From: a virus
Lineage: Duplodnaviria > Caudoviricetes
Virus record (IMG/VR): IMGVR_UViG_3300012665_000509
Span: 1-64,000 of that record
DNA: 64,000 nt
Reading direction: 5' to 3' (one strand)
The translations under genes were made by a program, and so were the position numbers. The stretch's first letter is position 1. The number at the start of each line of letters is the position of its first letter. This document shows positions 2 to 14,549 of the stretch, piece by piece. The notes beneath the pieces were generated by a model. It searched no databases. It saw only the letters and a program-made list of their open reading frames with translations, and was not told the DNA's origin.

Positions 2-169
2 TTTGTGCGGGTTATTAATATTGAAAAGCGCAACCAAAATATTCGCGACGACATCTTAGAGATGAACGGAATGAATCCGTCATACACTAGAATGGGAGAA
101 GGCGAACATCAGGCCGCATTAAAGCGTCACAACGAAAGTGAAGGAACACCTAATGACTCAGCTGTTTAA
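2..169 (+). CDS. gp55: 3' end of T4 gp55-like late-transcription sigma factor (partial, runs off window)
   Basis: Hand translation from nt 2: FVRVINIEKRNQNIRDDILEMNGMNPSYTRM...SAV* (TAA 167-169). Resembles the gp55 C-terminal region and lies directly upstream of gp47/gp46 as in T4-like genomes; TAAATA late promoters occur throughout the window. Confidence 0.6.
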   Translation, partial: FVRVINIEKRNQNIRDDILEMNGMNPSYTRMGEGEHQAALKRHNESEGTPNDSAV

Positions 170-1166
170 GAAAGTAGCATGTTTTACAGACATACATTTT
201 GGTTTAAAATCTAACAGTAGCGTACACAACCAGGATTGCGAAGACTTCGTAGACTGGTATATTGCTAAAGCAAAGGAGGAAGGCTGTGATACTGGAATAT
301 TTATGGGGGACTGGCATCACAATCGTAATAGTCTTAACATCACTACTATGGACTATAGCCTTAGGGCCTTGGAAAAGTTGGGTCAAGCCTTTGATAACTT
401 TTACTTCTTTCCTGGCAATCATGATTTATATTACAAAGATAAGCGGGATATACATTCCGTCGAGTTTGGCAAGTATATTCCTGGGATTACTGTTGTACAC
501 GAGCCTACTACTATTGGGAACGTTACGCTGTGCCCGTGGCTTGTAGGCGACGAATGGAAGTCTATTGGTAAGAAAGGTGGCAAGTATATCTTTGGTCACT
601 TTGAATTGCCTAGCTTCTTTATGAACGCTATGGTACAAATGCCGGATCACGGTGAGATTCAATTAGACGCATTTAAAGAGTACGAGCTAGGTTTTAGCGG
701 ACACTTTCACAAGCGTCAGCAAAAAGGCAATATGGTTTATATTGGCAATGCTTTCCCGCACAACTACGCAGATGCGTGGGATGATGAACGAGGAATGATG
801 ATCCTAGAATGGGATGGTAAACCAGAATACCATAGTTGGCCTAAGCAGCCTACATTTAGAACTGTCAAGCTAAGTCAGCTTATTGACGAAGCTGACTCAT
901 TAATCTTGCCCAAGCAACATTTACGTGTTACACTAGATATTGATATCTCGTATGAAGAAGCAAGTTTTATTAAAGAAAAGTTTATTTCTGATTATGATAT
1001 TAGAGAACTTACATTAATTGCTGAAAAGAAAGAAGCAGAAATTAATACTAATATTGATATCCAAGCATTTGAATCAGTTGACCAAATTGTTTCAAGTCAG
1101 CTTGTAAACATTGACAGCGATACATATAACAAAAACACGCTACTAGCGATTTATAACAGCCTATGA
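153..1166 (+). CDS. gp47: Mre11/SbcD-like recombination nuclease subunit
   Basis: Metallophosphoesterase motifs FTDIHFG, GDWHH, GNHD, GHF, FSGHFH, YIGN. Start moved to ATG 153 (AAGGA at 141-145). Confidence 0.93.
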   Translation: MTQLFKKVACFTDIHFGLKSNSSVHNQDCEDFVDWYIAKAKEEGCDTGIFMGDWHHNRNSLNITTMDYSLRALEKLGQAFDNFYFFPGNHDLYYKDKRDIHSVEFGKYIPGITVVHEPTTIGNVTLCPWLVGDEWKSIGKKGGKYIFGHFELPSFFMNAMVQMPDHGEIQLDAFKEYELGFSGHFHKRQQKGNMVYIGNAFPHNYADAWDDERGMMILEWDGKPEYHSWPKQPTFRTVKLSQLIDEADSLILPKQHLRVTLDIDISYEEASFIKEKFISDYDIRELTLIAEKKEAEINTNIDIQAFESVDQIVSSQLVNIDSDTYNKNTLLAIYNSL

Positions 1167-2941
1167 TAAAGATTAAAGATCTAACAGTAAAAAACTTTAT
1201 GAGTGTGGGCAACCAGACTCAAGCAGTAGACTTTGGTAAGGAAAACTTAACCCTTGTGTTAGGTGAAAACTTAGACCAGGGCGGGGACGATAGTGGTTCA
1301 CGTAATGGTACAGGTAAAACTACCATTGTAAATGCGTTGAGTTTTGCCTTGTTTGGTAATGCGCTTACTAACATTAAAAAAGACAATCTAATTAACAAGA
1401 TCAATAATAAGAACATGTTAGTTACATTATCTTTTGAAAAAGACGGGACTGACTATCGCATTGAACGGGGACGCAAACCTACACTATTAAAGTTCTACGT
1501 CAACGATCAAGAGCAAGAAACAGACGAAACTGATGATGCTCAAGGCGACATGCGAGAAACACAAAAAGATGTTGATGACTTGTTAGGCATGAGTCATGAC
1601 ATGTTCAAACATATTGTAGCATTGAATACTTACACAGAGCCTTTCTTAAGTATGAAGTCGGCAGATCAACGAGTAATTATTGAGCAGTTGCTAGGAATTA
1701 CTTTGCTGTCAGAAAAGGCAGAAACACTTAAAGAAATGATTCGTACTACTAAAGACGAAATTCTACAAGAAAGTGCTAACATAGAAGCTACTAAAAAATC
1801 TAATGAAAAGATTCAGCTGAGTATTGATAGTTTGCTAACAAGACAAACTGCTTGGAATTCACAAAAAGAAAGCGACTTAGAAAAAATTGGTCGAGCTATT
1901 ATTGAATTAGAAGATGTAGATATTACAGCTGAATTAGAAGCCCACGCATTACTAAAAACTTATACAGAGCAGGCCGCTAAACTAAAGAGCCTAAACAAAG
2001 AGCGGGCAACCTTAGAGAGCGCGACAGCGCAAGCGGAGCGAAGCGTAAAAAAATACGCGAGCGAGCTTGCCGCACTAGATGGTAAAAAGTGTCACGCCTG
2101 TGAGCAGGATCTACATGATCACAAACATGAAGAAATGTCTGCTACTGCTAAAACACACTTGGCCGATGCCGAGTCGTATGCTCTTAAGGTAGCTACTGAT
2201 CTAGCTAAGATTAACAGCGAACTAACTGCTATTGGTGAGCAAACTGCTCGTCCAGACACTTACTATGACACCGTAGAAGAAGCATTAAAACACCAGAACA
2301 ATCTTAAAACGCTGGAAACACAGTTAGTTGTTAAGGCTGGTGAGAATGATCCGTATCAAGAGCAAATTGACGAACTGATGGAAACTGCCCTACAAGAAAT
2401 TACATGGGACACAGTTAACGAGCTTAACACACTCAAAGAACATCAAGAGTTCTTGCTCAAATTGTTGACATCCAAGGATTCGTTTATTCGTAAAAAGATC
2501 ATTGATCAAAACCTAGCATACTTGAACAACAGACTCACTTACTATCTTGATCGTATGGGTCTGCCTCATACTGTAGTGTTTCAAAATGACCTAACAGTTG
2601 AGATCACCCAGCTAGGGCAAGATTTAGATTTTGATAATCTAAGTCGAGGTGAGCGTAATAGACTTATCCTTGGTCTGTCATGGGCTTTCCGTGACGTGTG
2701 GGAATCACTATATCAAGGCATTAACTTGTTGTTTGTTGATGAACTTATTGACAACGGCTTAGATGCTAGTGGTGTTGAGTCAGCGTTAGCTGTGCTTAAG
2801 AAAATGGGTCGTGAACGTAAAAAGAACATTTTCTTGATATCGCACAAAGACGAACTTATTGGTCGTGTTAACAATGTACTACGTGTTATCAAAGAAAACG
2901 GATTCACTAGCTATGCTAATGATTTAGAAGTTAACGAATAA
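1163..2941 (+). CDS. gp46: Rad50/SbcC-like ATPase subunit
   Basis: KNFMS, Walker A NGTGKTT, coiled coil with zinc hook CHAC, signature LSRGE, Walker B LLFVDE, ISH; overlaps gp47 stop. Confidence 0.95.
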   Translation: MIKIKDLTVKNFMSVGNQTQAVDFGKENLTLVLGENLDQGGDDSGSRNGTGKTTIVNALSFALFGNALTNIKKDNLINKINNKNMLVTLSFEKDGTDYRIERGRKPTLLKFYVNDQEQETDETDDAQGDMRETQKDVDDLLGMSHDMFKHIVALNTYTEPFLSMKSADQRVIIEQLLGITLLSEKAETLKEMIRTTKDEILQESANIEATKKSNEKIQLSIDSLLTRQTAWNSQKESDLEKIGRAIIELEDVDITAELEAHALLKTYTEQAAKLKSLNKERATLESATAQAERSVKKYASELAALDGKKCHACEQDLHDHKHEEMSATAKTHLADAESYALKVATDLAKINSELTAIGEQTARPDTYYDTVEEALKHQNNLKTLETQLVVKAGENDPYQEQIDELMETALQEITWDTVNELNTLKEHQEFLLKLLTSKDSFIRKKIIDQNLAYLNNRLTYYLDRMGLPHTVVFQNDLTVEITQLGQDLDFDNLSRGERNRLILGLSWAFRDVWESLYQGINLLFVDELIDNGLDASGVESALAVLKKMGRERKKNIFLISHKDELIGRVNNVLRVIKENGFTSYANDLEVNE

Positions 2942-3201
2942 TGCAACAAGACGAAGAGCTACACGCAGAACTAATGCGGGCGTTTCGAGTATACTTTGAA
3001 GCCAATCAAACTTGGATTAACAAAGGTACTAAACGTTCCGCTATACGTCTGCGGCAAGCTCTTAGTGAAATTAGGCGAATTTGCTCCGAACGCAGAGTAG
3101 TAGTGCGTGAGTGGGCAGTAGAAAAAGAGGCACAACTTGACGCACGGGCAGAACGCCGCGCTCAGAAACAAGGCACAAAGAGGTCCAATGATGATAATTA
3201 G
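2941..3201 (+). CDS. small basic helical protein, Hc1 (histone H1-like) family-like
   Basis: Arg/Lys-rich KGTKRSAIRLRQALSEIRRICSERR fits the Hc1-type G-x-K-x-A-x-x-R-x-R pattern; translationally coupled to gp46. Confidence 0.5.
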   Translation: MQQDEELHAELMRAFRVYFEANQTWINKGTKRSAIRLRQALSEIRRICSERRVVVREWAVEKEAQLDARAERRAQKQGTKRSNDDN

Positions 3202-3206
3202 ACTAC

Positions 3207-3653
3207 ATGACATGGTTATATCAAAATCAGATATTAGAAACACTACCGGAAGACTGCGTAGGGTTCGTCTATGTCATTACCAATAATATCTCTGGGCGCA
3301 AATATATAGGCAAAAAGTTAGCTAAGTTTAGCAAGACCACTTACAAAGTAGTCAAGTTAAAAAATGGCACTAAAAAGAAAAAGAAGATTCGCAGTAAAAT
3401 TGACAGTGACTGGCGTGAGTATTATGGATCAAGTCCAAATCTTACAGCAGACATCGAGGCACTAGGCAAAGAAAACTTCACCAGAGAAATCTTATATTAT
3501 TGTAACTCAAAATCAGAATGTAGTTATATCGAGGCAAGAGAACAGTTTAGTCGCAGGGTTTTAGAATCCGACGATTATTACAACGGGCACATCCAGGTCA
3601 GAGTCCACGGCTCACATATTAAGAAAAACCCCCCAGGCCAAATCAACGGTTAA
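3207..3653 (+). CDS. stand-alone GIY-YIG endonuclease (148 aa)
   Basis: GFVYVITN...KYIGKK motif, later YYGSS and conserved E/N (YIEAREQF...YYNGHI); no C-terminal DNA-binding extension. Confidence 0.88.
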   Translation: MTWLYQNQILETLPEDCVGFVYVITNNISGRKYIGKKLAKFSKTTYKVVKLKNGTKKKKKIRSKIDSDWREYYGSSPNLTADIEALGKENFTREILYYCNSKSECSYIEAREQFSRRVLESDDYYNGHIQVRVHGSHIKKNPPGQING

Positions 3654-3654
3654 A

Positions 3655-3990
3655 AGCTAGCGCAGGCTAATTTCTTGCGCCCTTATACCTGGACCACGTG
3701 TCGCAGGGACGGAAACTCTCTTTGCCGTAAAGAGTGCTCAGCAACTATCCTTAACAGGACGACGATCGCAAATGCCGCGGTTTTGCTGTTTGAATAGAAT
3801 AAGGCCCAAAGAAGGGAGAAAAACCCTACGTTGTTATCAGTGTTAGCAGACCGATAATAACCGCCGTTGTGATAAAGACGGAGCTCGTGGTACCGGACAA
3901 CCGCCACTGTAATGCTCTACTGCTAGTGTGATACGTTCAACTCAGATAATGTATTTTTAATCTTTGCCCGCCCTGGGCAAAGTGTGACTG
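3655..3990 (+). ncRNA. candidate large structured non-coding element (family unassigned)
   Basis: About ten stems found by eye in ~330 nt, including a three-way junction (3739-3788) and a possible pseudoknot (3844-3849 with 3920-3925). Strand assumed from the upstream gene. Confidence 0.5.
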
Positions 3991-4008
3991 AACAATCTAG
4001 ATAATATC

Positions 4009-4099
4009 TAAGTGCTTCGCACTTAATAGTGTTTTAATAATTAAAGAAAAGAAGATAAGCTCGAGCTGTTAAGCGAAGAGCAGATGAACGTAGTTCATC
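4009..4099. repeat. short perfect inverted repeats with C-GNA-G triloops
   Basis: TAAGTGC-TTC-GCACTTA (4009-4025; minus strand reads GCGAAGC) and GATGAAC-GTA-GTTCATC (4083-4099). Confidence 0.75.
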
Positions 4100-4109
4100 G
4101 TTAAACTAG

Positions 4110-4117
4110 TATAAATA
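4110..4117 (+). promoter_or_regulatory. T4-type late promoter TATAAATA
   Basis: Exact T4 late consensus ~20 nt upstream of ATG 4139. Confidence 0.8.
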
Positions 4118-4138
4118 CCTAATAGCGAGATAATACAA

Positions 4139-4963
4139 ATGAAGATTTACGACATTATTAAAGAAGAAGAACAACAGGTAGACGAAGTTGTTGGACTACT
4201 ACGTGCCGCGGGTAATTTTATTAAGCCGGCTGTAAGTGCTGTTGGAAAGCTAGGATCTAAAACAGCTACAAAAGCACCTAAAACTAGTTTAAGTACTAAA
4301 GTTCAAAACACAAAAGCTAATGTCGTTTCTGGTTACGGTAAGACAATGGAGTTGTCCGATGAAGCTATTAAATGGTATACTCGTTACAAAGGTATTTGGG
4401 AGCCAATTAGCGAGTACCGCGAAAATATGGCTGTGTGGGAACAGAAACTTAAGAACGGTGAAATCACTGAGAAAGAATATGAGTATGCTAGAGAAAAATA
4501 TCTATCATACCTAGTTGGACGCATTGGTGCTTATGTAACAGTAAGCGGTATGATCCGTACAACTGTGTTGCCAGCAGTAGCAGGATTGAGATTATTTAGA
4601 GGTACTAGATCAGCAGGATCAACACTAAGCGTACTAGCACGTGGTGCTAACTTGTATGTTGTTACAGAATATCTAAACAGTCCAGAAGGTAAAGATCTTA
4701 TAGCCAAGGCTTTTGCCGAAGGCCCGTTAGGTGATATGGTTGCGCCGTTTATAGGCGGAAGTGCCGCTAAACTGATTGACAAGCTCCAGGGCAAAGTACG
4801 TGAAAAAGATCCAGAGGACGAAGAAGCTGAAAAAGAACCAGTTAATACCTTAGCCGGTCCTGAACCTGGATATGATCCAGCAAAGCCTCAAGACCAGGAT
4901 ACTCCAATTAATATGGTGCGCGATCCTGCTACAGGTAAATTGCGTATTAAGACTGACTATTAA
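4139..4963 (+). CDS. late-expressed hypothetical protein, possible internal head protein
   Basis: 274-aa ORF behind a late promoter; N-terminus MKIYDIIKEE resembles the T4 capsid-targeting leader MKTYQEFIAE. Confidence 0.6.
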   Translation: MKIYDIIKEEEQQVDEVVGLLRAAGNFIKPAVSAVGKLGSKTATKAPKTSLSTKVQNTKANVVSGYGKTMELSDEAIKWYTRYKGIWEPISEYRENMAVWEQKLKNGEITEKEYEYAREKYLSYLVGRIGAYVTVSGMIRTTVLPAVAGLRLFRGTRSAGSTLSVLARGANLYVVTEYLNSPEGKDLIAKAFAEGPLGDMVAPFIGGSAAKLIDKLQGKVREKDPEDEEAEKEPVNTLAGPEPGYDPAKPQDQDTPINMVRDPATGKLRIKTDY

Positions 4964-6072: not shown

Positions 6073-8130
6073 ATGAGTGAACCGGTCAAACTCGATAGGG
6101 AATCGTTAGAGTCTTTAGCTGATATAATCTCTCGTCGATCGTCAGGAGGCGGCACAACCTCGTCCGGTGGTGGCGGTGGTGGATCTTCTATCCCAGCAGC
6201 CAGTGGCGCCGCATTTAAAGGTGTAATTGATTCTAGTATCAATGGATTAGGTAAGCTAGCATCCGGATCATTTACTGCGGCAGATGCGTTAGGTGTAGCA
6301 ACTGGCATTATTAACAAAGTACCAGGTATTGGTGATACTATATCCAACGTAGTTGGTAAAGTTGGTACTGCTGGACTTGAACTCAATAGAGATCTTAATG
6401 AAGCGGGCAAATATGGTGTAAGTTTAAACAACGATCTTGGCATGTTTGGCAAAGGACTTGCTAATGCTCGTATGGAGTCAGGTGAGTTTGTTCGTACTTT
6501 TGAGAAAAACTCAGTTGGTCTAGGTGTACTAGGTGGAACTACTGACCGAGCAGCCAAAAACTTTTTGGCTCTGGCTAAAGACTTCCAAGAAAATCCTATA
6601 GCTAGACAACTACAAGAAACTGGTGTTGCTGCCAGTGAAATGAACGGATTCTTAGTACAGCAATTATCTAATAGACGAACATTAGACATTACCGATGCCA
6701 ACGCACGGAAATCAGCAATTGAAGCAACATTGTCATTGAATCTTGAAATGGATGCGCTGGCACGTCAAACTGGTAAGAGTCGCCAAGCGCAGATGGACGA
6801 CTTGAAAAAAGAACAGTCCAAGGCTGAAGTTCAAGCGATGTACTTACAGCTGGGGGAAAAAGGTAGACAACAGTTTGACGCAATGCAAGTCGCAATGGGT
6901 CCTTTAGGTTCTGGCGCTAGAATGTTAGCTAGTGAAATTGCTACAGGCGGAGTAAGATCTAAAGAAGGTGCCGCACAATTAGCAGCCATGGGGCCAGCAG
7001 CCGCTAGCTTCCAGGCTGCAGTTAAACAGCAAATGGCCGCAAGAACTGAAGAAGAGAAACTAGCGGCCGCGGCGGCAATGAAACGTGCCCAACAAGAAAT
7101 TACAGCGTATCAAAAAACTGATCAATATTTAAGCATGGTACGTGTAGATCGAGAAACTGATATTGGTAAAGCACGAGCTCAACAGTTAGTAGAAAATCAA
7201 TATATTAATTCTGAGCTTGCCGCTGAAAAAGAAGGTCGAGGAAAGACACAAGCAGAGATTGAAGCGGCTAGAAAGAAAGAAATTGCCGAAGCACAGTCCG
7301 GCAAACAAACAAAAGCACTAGACGGTACTGCTGACGGCAGTAAAGCTGGAAAAGCAATTAACGAAAGTAAAATTGTAGCTCAGGATATTAGAGCAGGCAT
7401 GGGGCCATATTTTGAAAAAGCCAATGACCTCGCAGGTAAAAGTGTTGACTATCTAAAAGAGATCAGCAACAATACACCAAAACTTAAAGCTATAATGAGC
7501 CAAGGTAACTCTGAAGAAAAAACAGCTCAATTTAGAGATGGCATGAGAAGTCTAACACCCGATGCGTTACTTGGCCCAACTGCTAGTAGCAATCCTGCTA
7601 ATCGACCTGCCGGCATGCCAAGCGTTACACAAAAGATGGAAGGCCGTGCTGATGGTTCGTTAGGTAGTGTAGGCAAGTTAATTGAAGACTTTGGCAAAGG
7701 TACTCCAATGATGTTACACGGTAAGGAAGGTGTTATTACCGAAAAGCAACTTAAAGATATTGTAGGCCAAACAGCTAGCATGAGTAAAAAAGCAACCGCG
7801 GCTCCACAGAATGTTATGGGACAATTTGGTCCTATGATTAGTGACATGCAGACTCAAATGAAAACAAAACTAGTTGAAGCCCAAGCACAAATGCCTACAA
7901 TTGAAAGTATGAAAGGCATGTTTGGTGGTATGGGAATACCACAAAGCGCACCGCCTACTGAAGCACCTCCAGCGCCTACAGGCGGTAATAACGCTACTCT
8001 AAATGATGTGGTTGGTAGCTTAGATAGGTTAAATACTGTGATGGCGCAACTCTTAAGTCAAAATGACGAGCTAGGCCGCCTACAAATAAGGGCTACTAAG
8101 AGCACATCTGGCAACAGATTGGCAGCATAA
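6073..8130 (+). CDS. tape-measure-like tail protein
   Basis: 685 aa, Ala/Gln/Lys-rich predicted helical, Gly/Ser-rich N-terminus, C-terminal TPMMLHGKEGVIT motif of the type seen at tape-measure ends; adjacent to the chaperone locus. Confidence 0.65.
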   Translation: MSEPVKLDRESLESLADIISRRSSGGGTTSSGGGGGGSSIPAASGAAFKGVIDSSINGLGKLASGSFTAADALGVATGIINKVPGIGDTISNVVGKVGTAGLELNRDLNEAGKYGVSLNNDLGMFGKGLANARMESGEFVRTFEKNSVGLGVLGGTTDRAAKNFLALAKDFQENPIARQLQETGVAASEMNGFLVQQLSNRRTLDITDANARKSAIEATLSLNLEMDALARQTGKSRQAQMDDLKKEQSKAEVQAMYLQLGEKGRQQFDAMQVAMGPLGSGARMLASEIATGGVRSKEGAAQLAAMGPAAASFQAAVKQQMAARTEEEKLAAAAAMKRAQQEITAYQKTDQYLSMVRVDRETDIGKARAQQLVENQYINSELAAEKEGRGKTQAEIEAARKKEIAEAQSGKQTKALDGTADGSKAGKAINESKIVAQDIRAGMGPYFEKANDLAGKSVDYLKEISNNTPKLKAIMSQGNSEEKTAQFRDGMRSLTPDALLGPTASSNPANRPAGMPSVTQKMEGRADGSLGSVGKLIEDFGKGTPMMLHGKEGVITEKQLKDIVGQTASMSKKATAAPQNVMGQFGPMISDMQTQMKTKLVEAQAQMPTIESMKGMFGGMGIPQSAPPTEAPPAPTGGNNATLNDVVGSLDRLNTVMAQLLSQNDELGRLQIRATKSTSGNRLAA

Positions 8131-14058: not shown

Positions 14059-14153
14059 GATAAATACTTGGTATGACTTACATGGTGTAAGTTTTATGCG
14101 GAAATCCAACCGCGTATGGCCTAGAACGCCATCTTTCTTAAGGAGAAAACAAA
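14059..14153 (+). promoter_or_regulatory. late promoter plus three-hairpin 5' leader
   Basis: GATAAATA 14059-14066; stems 14075-14093, 14095-14116, 14117-14131; SD AAGGAG 14140-14145. Confidence 0.6.
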
Positions 14154-14549
14154 ATGGGACGTCCTTTAACTAAAACAAAACTTGACGGTATTGAGTGCGA
14201 AGCACAAATTGGTTCTGGTGGTTCAGAACTTTTAACAGGTTCTATTGTTAAACAAGTTAGCACACGCCGTTACAAAGTAACAACTACTGACGGTACAGCA
14301 GTATGTACACTAGTACAAACAGCTGACCTCGGTGCTAACGAAATGAGTATTATTGCTACAGACAGCACAAATGCTACATACTTTGTTAGCAAACTAACAG
14401 GTAAGAGAGCAACACTTACTCGTCTAACAGAATCAGACGGTGGCGGTTCAAGCCCTCCTGCTACTGGTTGGATCTATGTTACAGATTCTTCAGCTCCTTG
14501 GACAACAGGTGCCGCAACAGGTAACGTTGTATCTATCGCTCAGAAGTAA
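14154..14549 (+). CDS. probable virion (head-associated) protein
   Basis: 131 aa, Thr/Gly-rich beta-type, own late promoter and strong SD directly after the capsid gene. Confidence 0.6.
   Translation: MGRPLTKTKLDGIECEAQIGSGGSELLTGSIVKQVSTRRYKVTTTDGTAVCTLVQTADLGANEMSIIATDSTNATYFVSKLTGKRATLTRLTESDGGGSSPPATGWIYVTDSSAPWTTGAATGNVVSIAQK

Follow-up and report, generated by a model that had tools for sequence, protein, structure and literature searches.

We analysed a window of 64,000 nucleotides (nt), positions 1 to 64,000 of the virus record IMGVR_UViG_3300012665_000509 (Duplodnaviria; Caudoviricetes). Within it, a 485-nt gap separates the gene of a stand-alone GIY-YIG nuclease from an open reading frame (ORF) of 274 amino acids (aa), at the end of a block of T4-like recombination genes. 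The window is a piece of a 76-kb fragment of an uncultured virus with a completeness estimate of 21%. Near-complete relatives within its clade are about 345 kb, and the phage is an uncultured giant T4-like phage. Judged by comparison with its homologues, the gap holds a large, conserved, multi-domain structured RNA element. Its first 137 nt are an already known motif, and only the remainder of about 310 nt and the overall architecture are uncatalogued. An earlier note, made from the letters of the window, had marked positions 3655-3990 as an unassigned, novel large phage non-coding RNA (ncRNA), possibly a partner of the nuclease, or else a structured origin.

Rfam match and extent of the element

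A cmscan search of the whole window against Rfam 15 matched 3655-3791 (+) to RF01718, Polynucleobacter-1 RNA, from the first to the last of the 141 model positions; the score is 102.2 bits (E 5.4e-21), where the gathering score is 37. The earlier note had named a confident Rfam match as evidence against its claim, and for this part neither 'unassigned' nor 'novel' survives; the large, conserved, structured RNA does, and the rest of it has no family. With E up to 10, the region 3400-4300 gave no other Rfam family except two snoRNA-like chance matches, and none for RNase P RNA, tRNA, tmRNA or group I/II introns, as the note had supposed.

The Polynucleobacter-1 motif was first described from 16 sequences, one a RefSeq match in a Polynucleobacter genome and the remainder from fresh water or estuary; it was scored 'RNA? 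y, cis-reg? y, switch ?' there, with neither a function nor a phage link given (Weinberg et al., 2010, Genome Biol 11:R31, PMC2864571). A full-text literature search by name and accession returned solely this discovery paper. A catalogue from 2023 describes over 10,000 structured RNAs of viruses; a term search of its main text found neither the RNA nor GIY-YIG, and its supplementary tables, which may list parts of the element, fall outside that search (PMC10690425). The phage element shares with the motif the entire model, covariation in helices P1, P4 and P6, and freshwater labels. It differs in that the Rfam model, the first ~140 nt, is here merely the 5' domain of an RNA of ~450-470 nt, and the model falls short of the whole by about 310 conserved, covarying nt at 3792-4099. 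It also differs in setting: it belongs to giant T4-like phages, with a gene before it and a late-promoter-like box after it. The 5' untranslated region (UTR) role that the 2010 scoring implies does not fit, because the RNA directly follows an upstream ORF and a T4 late-promoter-like box, TATAAATA, stands between it and the next ATG, whose gene is unconserved.

Homologues came from two sets of 80 IMG/VR loci, one anchored on gp46 relatives and the other on relatives of the GIY-YIG protein. With 3655-4138 as query, blastn matched 87 loci, many of them at 66-84% identity over query positions 1-450. Twenty full-length homologues were made into an nhmmer profile, which matched 132 of 162 loci, 68 of them end to end (~445 nt). 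Conservation spans 3655 to ~4100 and covarying helices continue to 4099, so the earlier limit of 3990 was too narrow; we place the conserved unit at about 3630-4100 on the + strand. About 20 nt ahead of the Rfam start, AGGC(A/C/T) is retained in most of 60 upstream stretches inspected by eye, including that of locus L023, where the upstream gene encodes a PD-(D/E)XK nuclease. Since AGGC is kept despite a different upstream gene, the RNA is predicted to start, probably, within the last codons of the nuclease gene. At the other end, ATAAATA follows the last hairpin, H15, in 13 of 20 printed sequences (counted by eye); TATAAATA was judged against the T4 late-promoter consensus. GC content is 0.46-0.49 over 3601-4000 and 0.32 in 4001-4200, in line with the earlier remark that the element is richer in GC than its surroundings.

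The element does not appear to code for protein: there is no conserved ORF, and the longest open frames (38-143 codons) vary in strand among homologues and match no family. A blastn search of 3655-4138 against 50,697 GenBank phage records, a set that may omit close records, gave no match. An exact 22-mer from the window matched a single viral contig, L001, inside a high-GC coding region, and was discarded as chance.

Fold, covariation and twin boxes

The structure under test, drawn by hand, has 91 pairs in 23 helices. It was applied to A2, in which MAFFT aligned 60 distinct full-length homologues by sequence only, with no structure used in the fitting. For controls, the partner was slid by 1-3 columns and 500 shuffles were made; the values are pair counts, not R-scape statistics. 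Standard pairs fill 89.5% of cells (36-42% after sliding), 71 of the 91 pairs change on both sides (28-39), as do 737 cells (87-136), and the covariation score is 0.403 (0.056-0.084). None of the 500 shuffles reached any observed pairing measure, and the covariation check that the earlier note had proposed comes out for the fold. Over the 61 best pairs, G-U or U-G occupies 261 cells and A-C or C-A 26, which argues that the + strand is the one selected to fold.

The best-supported helices are P1, P4, P6, the hairpin at 3830-3861, H11/H10 (3881-3917), H14 and H15 (4059-4099) and two pseudoknots (Table 1). In the 5' domain, the consensus helices of RF01718 are kept through compensatory changes in the phage homologues, most strongly P1, P4 and P6. 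Most stems drawn in the earlier note recur: 3660-3680, 3688-3707 and 3718-3734 as P1, P2 and P3, the CAGCAA/TTGCTG three-way junction as P4 enclosing 3748-3759 and 3764-3782, and 3813-3827, 3830-3861 and 3962-3982 as H7, H8 and H12. Its TAGCAG/CTGCTA pseudoknot is PK1, lengthened here by a pair, and its repeated AGTGTGA...AGATAAT is a real, duplicated box module. The stem 3864-3881 is not supported: of 60 sequences, just 14 and 30 have canonical pairs at its outer positions. The nested hairpin at 3881-3917 holds in its outer and middle parts, and its inner CGG-ACAA-CCG does not, as ACAAC (3897-3901) covaries with 3866-3870 in PK2.

Two small pairings absent from the Rfam consensus line are possible in the 5' domain: a 3-bp pseudoknot of 3656-3658 at the 5' end with 3665-3667 in the P1 loop (GC 53, AU 4 at one pair), and a 2-bp closure of P2, 3681-3682 with 3711-3712 (CG 45, GC 9 at one pair).

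In the 3' module, each copy of the box comes after a helix and is made up of (G/A)UGA(C), a short spacer, ACUC or AUCU, and a heptamer. An exact heptamer twin is present in 119 of the 160 first loci, and over all loci, with duplicate loci counted, there are 12 distinct heptamers, each the same in both boxes. Twin columns of A2 change together: 3944/3999 reads AA 32, GG 27 and GA 1; 3945/4000 GG 55, CC 4 and AA 1; 3948/4003 AA 50 and GG 10; and 3950/4005 UU 58 and AA 2 (n=60). The neighbouring columns 3941-3943 and 3996-3998 are CUC and UCU in 60/60. For the variable box columns, the strongest mutual information is with the twin column (0.89, 0.47 and 0.65 bits), and a mutual-information search of the RNA for a cis partner shows no complementary column, just the twin box. 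A tree computed from A2 without the box columns requires at least 11 changes at 3944 and at least 12 at 3999. Phylogenetically independent pairs on supported branches all go in the same direction, 5:0, 3:0 and 3:0 at three positions; the pooled 11:0 is our own arithmetic and presumes that positions are independent. That the CUC/UCU difference stays fixed inside a co-varying stretch speaks for selection on identity rather than for simple gene conversion. Together with the identical heptamers, it suggests two equivalent docking sites for one partner.

Two kinds of candidate were rejected. RNAalifold on raw alignments, which recovered just part of the structure, proposed a helix between the two boxes, and this is broken by variants such as CGCAU/UGCAU. 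Among 80 loci found with the box pattern, three (L177, L180 and L234) are chance matches in acidic coding repeats.

Table 1. Features of the RNA, its flanking genes and the corresponding regions of related loci (window positions unless a locus is named)
Feature	Position	Strand	Remarks
SbcD/gp47-like gene	138-1166		T4-like surroundings
SbcC/gp46-like gene	1163-2941		T4-like surroundings
86-aa ORF, Arg/Lys-rich	2941-3201	+	between gp46 and nuclease
148-aa GIY-YIG nuclease gene (SegE-like)	3207-3653	+	stand-alone; upstream neighbour, outside the RNA proper
Probable 5' leader	3630-3654	+	overlaps final codons and stop of nuclease gene; conserved AGGC at 3635-3638
P1	3660-64/3676-80	+	98% paired, two-sided changes at 4/5 pairs
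P2	3689-94/3700-06	+	81-84% paired, weaker in MAFFT alignment
P3	3718-21/3731-34	+	71% paired; alignment poor here
P4, CAGCAA/TTGCTG junction stem	3739-44/3783-88	+	97% paired, two-sided changes 5/6
P5	3748-50/3757-59	+	inside three-way junction closed by P4
P6	3764-69/3777-82	+	99% and 82% paired, two-sided changes present
Hairpin H7	3813-3827	+	compensatory variants; 77-83% paired despite register errors
Hairpin H8	3830-3861	+	two-sided changes 11/11 pairs, 89.2% paired
H8 loop	3842-3849	+	5' strand of PK1
Pseudoknot PK1	3843-3849/3920-3926	+	two-sided changes 7/7, 97.8% paired
Pseudoknot PK2 (H9)	3866-3870/3897-3901	+	3' strand in H10 loop; 98.7% paired; UA 35/CG 25 and GC 36/AU 20 at two pairs
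Invariant GGUACCGG and ACCGCC	within 3866-3917	+	
H11	3881-84/3914-17	+	92.1% paired, 4/4 covary
H10	3887-90/3904-07	+	100% paired
Box module 1	3927-3952	+	GUGA, spacer, ACUC (3940-3943), heptamer AGAUAAU (3944-3950)
Hairpin H12	3962-3982	+	between boxes; 78.9% paired; variants GCCC/GGGC, AGCCC/GGGCU, CACCG/CGGUG
Box module 2	3982-4008	+	GUGUGAC, spacer, AUCU (3995-3998), same heptamer AGAUAAU (3999-4005)
Hairpin H13	4010-4024	+	small, GCUUCGC core; listed at 4009-4025 by terminator-like scan; variable, missing in some homologues
Hairpin H14	4059-4081	+	GA/GAA internal loop, GNRA-type loop; 84% and 98% paired, 5/6 covary
Hairpin H15	4083-4099	+	last conserved element; 99% paired, 6/7 covary
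TATAAATA, T4 late-promoter-like box	4110-4117	+	between RNA and next ATG; conservation ends just before
274-aa ORF	4139-4963	+	downstream; no conservation with the RNA
Type B 5' regions	L090 2915-3113		also L105, L113 and others
Type C 5' regions	L114 1760-2075; L145 2930-3250; L151 2935-3265		
PF24608 genes	L023 6060-6581; L069 6017-6583; L055 ~6098-6606; L201 667-1167		

Neighbouring genes, other 5' regions and bacterial copies

The 148-aa protein upstream matches PF19835 SegE_GIY-YIG over residues 3-129 of 148 (E 4.6e-33; 114.5 bits, cut-off 25) and also phrog_447, and has at least 588 relatives in IMG/VR. In 76 of 78 full-length loci the RNA starts 0-78 nt (median 23) past the nuclease stop. 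The sample of 80 box-pattern loci, some of whose contigs overlap the first sets, contains 77 real ones, five of them cut off upstream; in the remaining 72 the gene upstream encodes the GIY-YIG protein 68 times and a PD-(D/E)XK nuclease four times. The latter enzyme (PF24608, 173-188 aa, E ~1e-29; phrog_244, labelled 'RusA-like Holliday junction resolvase' in PHROGs) is found instead of GIY-YIG in L023, L069, L055, L201, L170 and L196. Its gene occupies the exact GIY-YIG slot in L023 and L069, ending 11 and ~20 nt ahead of the RNA, and lies 0.5-1 kb from the RNA in L170, L196 and L055. The same box variants occur with both nuclease types. PF24608 in the GIY-YIG slot suggests that the two enzymes serve the same recombination job, and the small nuclease is probably a structure-specific enzyme of the recombination module, supplied by either of two folds. 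Its adjacency to the RNA looks like conserved synteny, that of a long-standing neighbour and not of a dedicated partner.

T4 Seg genes often adjoin conserved RNA genes, and the match to PF19835 likens the upstream protein to T4 SegE and other free-standing GIY-YIG homing endonucleases. Unlike these, it has only 148 aa with no DNA-binding extension, keeps a constant position across the clade, and is exchanged in some lineages for the resolvase-labelled PD-(D/E)XK nuclease. These features point to a core recombination enzyme more than to a selfish homing gene.

The order gp47, gp46, (small ORF), nuclease, RNA, ..., gp26 on the opposite strand is almost invariant among related loci; in the window the gp26-like baseplate-hub gene lies beyond the 274-aa ORF. 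The small ORF, which has no Pfam or PHROG family match, is present between gp46 and the nuclease in roughly half of related loci, and a small ORF of this type also precedes the PD-(D/E)XK gene in L023 and L069. The 274-aa ORF has no family in Pfam or PHROG and gives weak tblastn matches in just 2 of 160 related loci; when its protein served as a search anchor in viral contigs, none of 22 pattern matches was confirmed as a relative.

Not every related locus carries the Rfam domain. In about 48 of the 160 first loci the profile match is confined to its 3' half and begins at the PK2 strand. Type B loci among them have another conserved sequence of ~190 nt between the nuclease stop and the core, and show no Rfam family match at all. 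In type C loci (L114, L145, L151 and L055), a third 5' region precedes the same boxes, H14 and H15. The 5' regions of types B and C, ~190-320 nt, are visibly covarying and belong to no Rfam family. Searched over whole records, RF01718 was present as a single copy in each of 12 full-length controls, among them a 99%-complete genome of 345 kb, and in 0 of 38 records without a full-length profile match, one of them a 100%-complete genome of 347 kb; most of the 38 retain the 3' part. The uncatalogued 3' part is thus the common core and more widespread than the Rfam part. H14 is also found in the type B, type C and Polynucleobacter copies.

A pattern scan of one genome per prokaryotic species gave five loci, one in Polynucleobacter rarus (L286) and four on contigs of metagenome-assembled genomes (MAGs). 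RF01718 scores 86 bits in L286 and 98.5 bits in L283. About 250 nt 3' of the match, both have the ACCGCC element, two boxes, and H14-like and H15-like hairpins, so the Rfam motif heads a longer RNA in bacteria too; the L286 boxes read ACUCAGCGAAAG and AUCUAGCGAAAG. The bacterial member in P. rarus therefore has the same 3' boxes and terminal hairpins as the phage RNA. No SegE-like or PF24608 gene was found by tblastn in the five bacterial loci. The bacterial copies neighbour a DUF6641 protein and, in L283, additionally a small tyrosine integrase. DUF6641 gave no match in five phage records, with a search that was equally silent on control genomes.

Two of the MAG contigs found with the RF01718-derived pattern had been binned to unrelated bacteria: L283, of 81 kb, carries the label Nitrospira lenta, and L285, of 156 kb, the label Bordetella parapertussis. 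Both may be mobile islands, or else DNA that was mis-binned. In L286, the ORF just downstream of the RNA (1124-1567, -) reads GIYILVG...LYIGEG, GIY-YIG-like by eye, and its remainder is masked. Sequence comparison with Pfam, NCBIfam and PDB gave no match for this ORF, and it is not similar to the phage nuclease.

Interpretation

Several points are established: membership of the Rfam family, the pairings, the folding strand, a fixed place at the end of the gp47-gp46-small ORF-nuclease block, and a shared 3' module. Beyond these, we favour with moderate confidence the reading that ~3630-4100 (+) is an ncRNA gene of ~450-470 nt whose product is a trans-acting scaffold with twin recognition boxes, the nuclease being a syntenic neighbour. 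The RNA would be transcribed with or just behind the nuclease gene, at the tail of an early or middle recombination operon, and would end at H13-H15, ahead of the late promoter. Its 5' domain, 3655-3791, is the Polynucleobacter-1 motif, its middle domain is locked by PK1 and PK2, and its 3' module runs through box 1, H12, box 2, an A-rich linker, H14 and H15. Acting in trans, it would use the two boxes to dock one co-evolving partner, which could be a dimeric protein or a second nucleic acid present in two copies.

Some observations weigh against the trans-acting scaffold. The folding energy of 3655-3990 (-91.9 kcal/mol) is no better than that of shuffles (-90.7 +/- 5.1, z = -0.24), and the same is true of the opposite strand (z = -0.03); the case for the fold is therefore comparative and not thermodynamic. 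Sequence alone cannot fully separate an RNA fold from a fold of single-stranded + strand DNA, although Rfam membership and the pseudoknotted architecture favour RNA. No promoter was identified for the RNA, with five sigma-70-like sites and 4.7 expected from shuffles. The search for a partner of the boxes found none: the box motif occurs four times in the window, counting the two boxes, where 1.4 matches are expected. The sign tests on box changes are individually under-powered (p ~0.06-0.25 per position), and concerted evolution of the boxes by gene conversion is opposed solely by the fixed CUC/UCU difference. Wherever 600 nt or more lie downstream of a GIY-YIG gene (132 loci), an RNA of the superfamily is present (129 by profile, three type C by eye), and such tight adjacency is also expected of a functional pairing. 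Lastly, expression data are thin. Public RNA runs hold just 0.04-0.18 of the sampled words. Metatranscriptomes X3, X4 and X6, from three studies, give short contig pieces at least 85% alike, over RNA and nuclease gene alike and at low depth; this coverage is compatible with transcription, gives neither ends nor strand, and could be DNA carry-over.

In X1, a freshwater library labelled RNA-Seq and possibly DNA, contigs of relatives cover 3876-3997 at a summed word depth of 500-730, with 20-140 in the flanks. If the library is RNA, this depth would point to an abundant core RNA.

The alternative that survives best, though we think it unlikely, is a cis-acting operon element. As a structure in the 3' UTR, it would stabilise the early recombination transcript, bring about its termination or antitermination, or set when the late genes downstream are entered. 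The element does close the gp47-gp46-nuclease block, with a late-promoter-like box after it, H13 is terminator-like, H14 and H15 are conserved terminal hairpins, and the motif was scored as probably cis-regulatory in a table of the discovery paper (PMC2864571). However, an RNA of ~450 nt, doubly pseudoknotted and with many unpaired bases that do not vary, goes far beyond the needs of a terminator or stabiliser, and the tails after H13 and H15 are U-poor. The downstream genes vary among phages, and the same RNA occurs in bacterial islands with other neighbours and in another orientation.

The earlier note had proposed that the nuclease and the RNA are partners. In this reading, which we regard as improbable, the RNA would form a ribonucleoprotein with whichever small nuclease lies upstream and would target or regulate it, by analogy with known RNA-associated nucleases. 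The close spacing behind the nuclease stop, the leader overlapping the ORF end and the presence of the RNA in every GIY-YIG locus with room for it are what such a pair would give; so is the PF24608 nuclease filling the slot directly before the RNA when GIY-YIG is missing (L023, L069 and L201). The boxes are lineage-variable, like a specificity element. Against this, all nuclease-RNA loci come from one syntenic clade, so their adjacency is not independent evidence. Two unrelated nuclease folds would need to bind one RNA, the box variants are shared between their loci, and in L170, L196 and L055 the PD-(D/E)XK gene lies 0.5-1 kb from the RNA. The 148-aa protein is almost wholly catalytic domain. 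Box-complementary targets are neither enriched in the window nor present in cis. The co-occurrence check named in the earlier note goes against the pairing, since the RNA also stands behind the PF24608 nuclease and in the five bacterial loci, which have neither nuclease by tblastn and are flanked by DUF6641 and integrase genes instead.

IscB and TnpB, RNA-guided nucleases of IS200/IS605 elements, have omega RNAs that offer a parallel. As generally described, these too are structured RNAs that abut or overlap the end of a nuclease ORF and contain a short lineage-variable segment. Here, however, the nuclease is a single-domain GIY-YIG or PD-(D/E)XK protein and there are no transposon ends. The variable segment is duplicated and lies inside the scaffold, not at its end, and the RNA occurs without GIY-YIG or PF24608 nucleases, so that co-occurrence with one family is not obligate.

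A DNA-level element (replication origin, single-strand initiation or recombination signal, or homing target of the neighbouring endonuclease, with the boxes as direct-repeat protein sites on DNA) is very unlikely. In its favour, parallel change in direct repeats is typical where binding sites co-evolve with their protein, the element lies at a module boundary, and folded single-stranded DNA also tolerates G-T wobble. Against it, sites in duplex DNA would not be expected to show strand-specific compensatory pairing that includes two pseudoknots, and the 5' domain belongs to a curated family of RNAs. Neither an AT-rich unwinding tract nor an excess of promoters adjoins the element (GC as above), and the nuclease is conserved and co-linear clade-wide, not sporadic like a homing gene. 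The structured origin suggested earlier fares no better. T4-type origins combine a promoter and an unwinding element and are primed by an R-loop; here there is no AT-rich tract, promoter sites are at shuffle level, and pairing of the + strand is under selection.

The element also resembles another group of RNAs. GOLLD, ROOL, OLE and HEARO are large, multi-domain, pseudoknotted RNAs found in phages or mobile islands, with functions that are unexplained. The likeness lies in size, in the multi-domain pseudoknotted fold and in occurrence in phages or mobile islands; the RNA here is smaller and gives no match to them in 3400-4300 at E up to 10. We know of no interchangeable 5' domains or twin boxes covarying in identity in these four RNAs. 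A bolder extension, which we hold to be doubtful, is that Polynucleobacter-1 is one of at least three interchangeable heads on a far larger, modular class of RNAs from giant aquatic T4-like phages and freshwater bacterial islands, and that a duplicated, lineage-specific 7-nt 'address' in the 3' module common to the class programs recognition of a co-evolving partner, possibly directing the adjoining nuclease or another effector. If true, this would be a new kind of programmable RNA-protein system.

Polynucleobacter-1, an orphan motif of 141 nt since 2010, proves to be the first part of a longer, doubly pseudoknotted RNA (~450-470 nt), which hundreds of uncultured giant T4-like phages keep at one fixed site beside their recombination genes. 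The twin boxes provide a concrete handle on it, as changes of the seven bases in both should alter what the RNA binds. The comparison of loci also corrects the tempting equation of nuclease plus RNA with a ribonucleoprotein, and suggests that the small GIY-YIG protein is a core recombination nuclease replaceable by a PD-(D/E)XK enzyme.

Over the whole window, ARAGORN found no tRNA or tmRNA genes. The Rfam scan gave a second match, RF02980 freshwater-2 RNA, at 14076-14156 (+) with 73.3 bits against a gathering score of 49.9. It sits between a late-promoter-like box, GATAAATA (~14060), and an ATG at 14155 with a Shine-Dalgarno sequence, a placement that makes it look like a 5' UTR element of a late gene.

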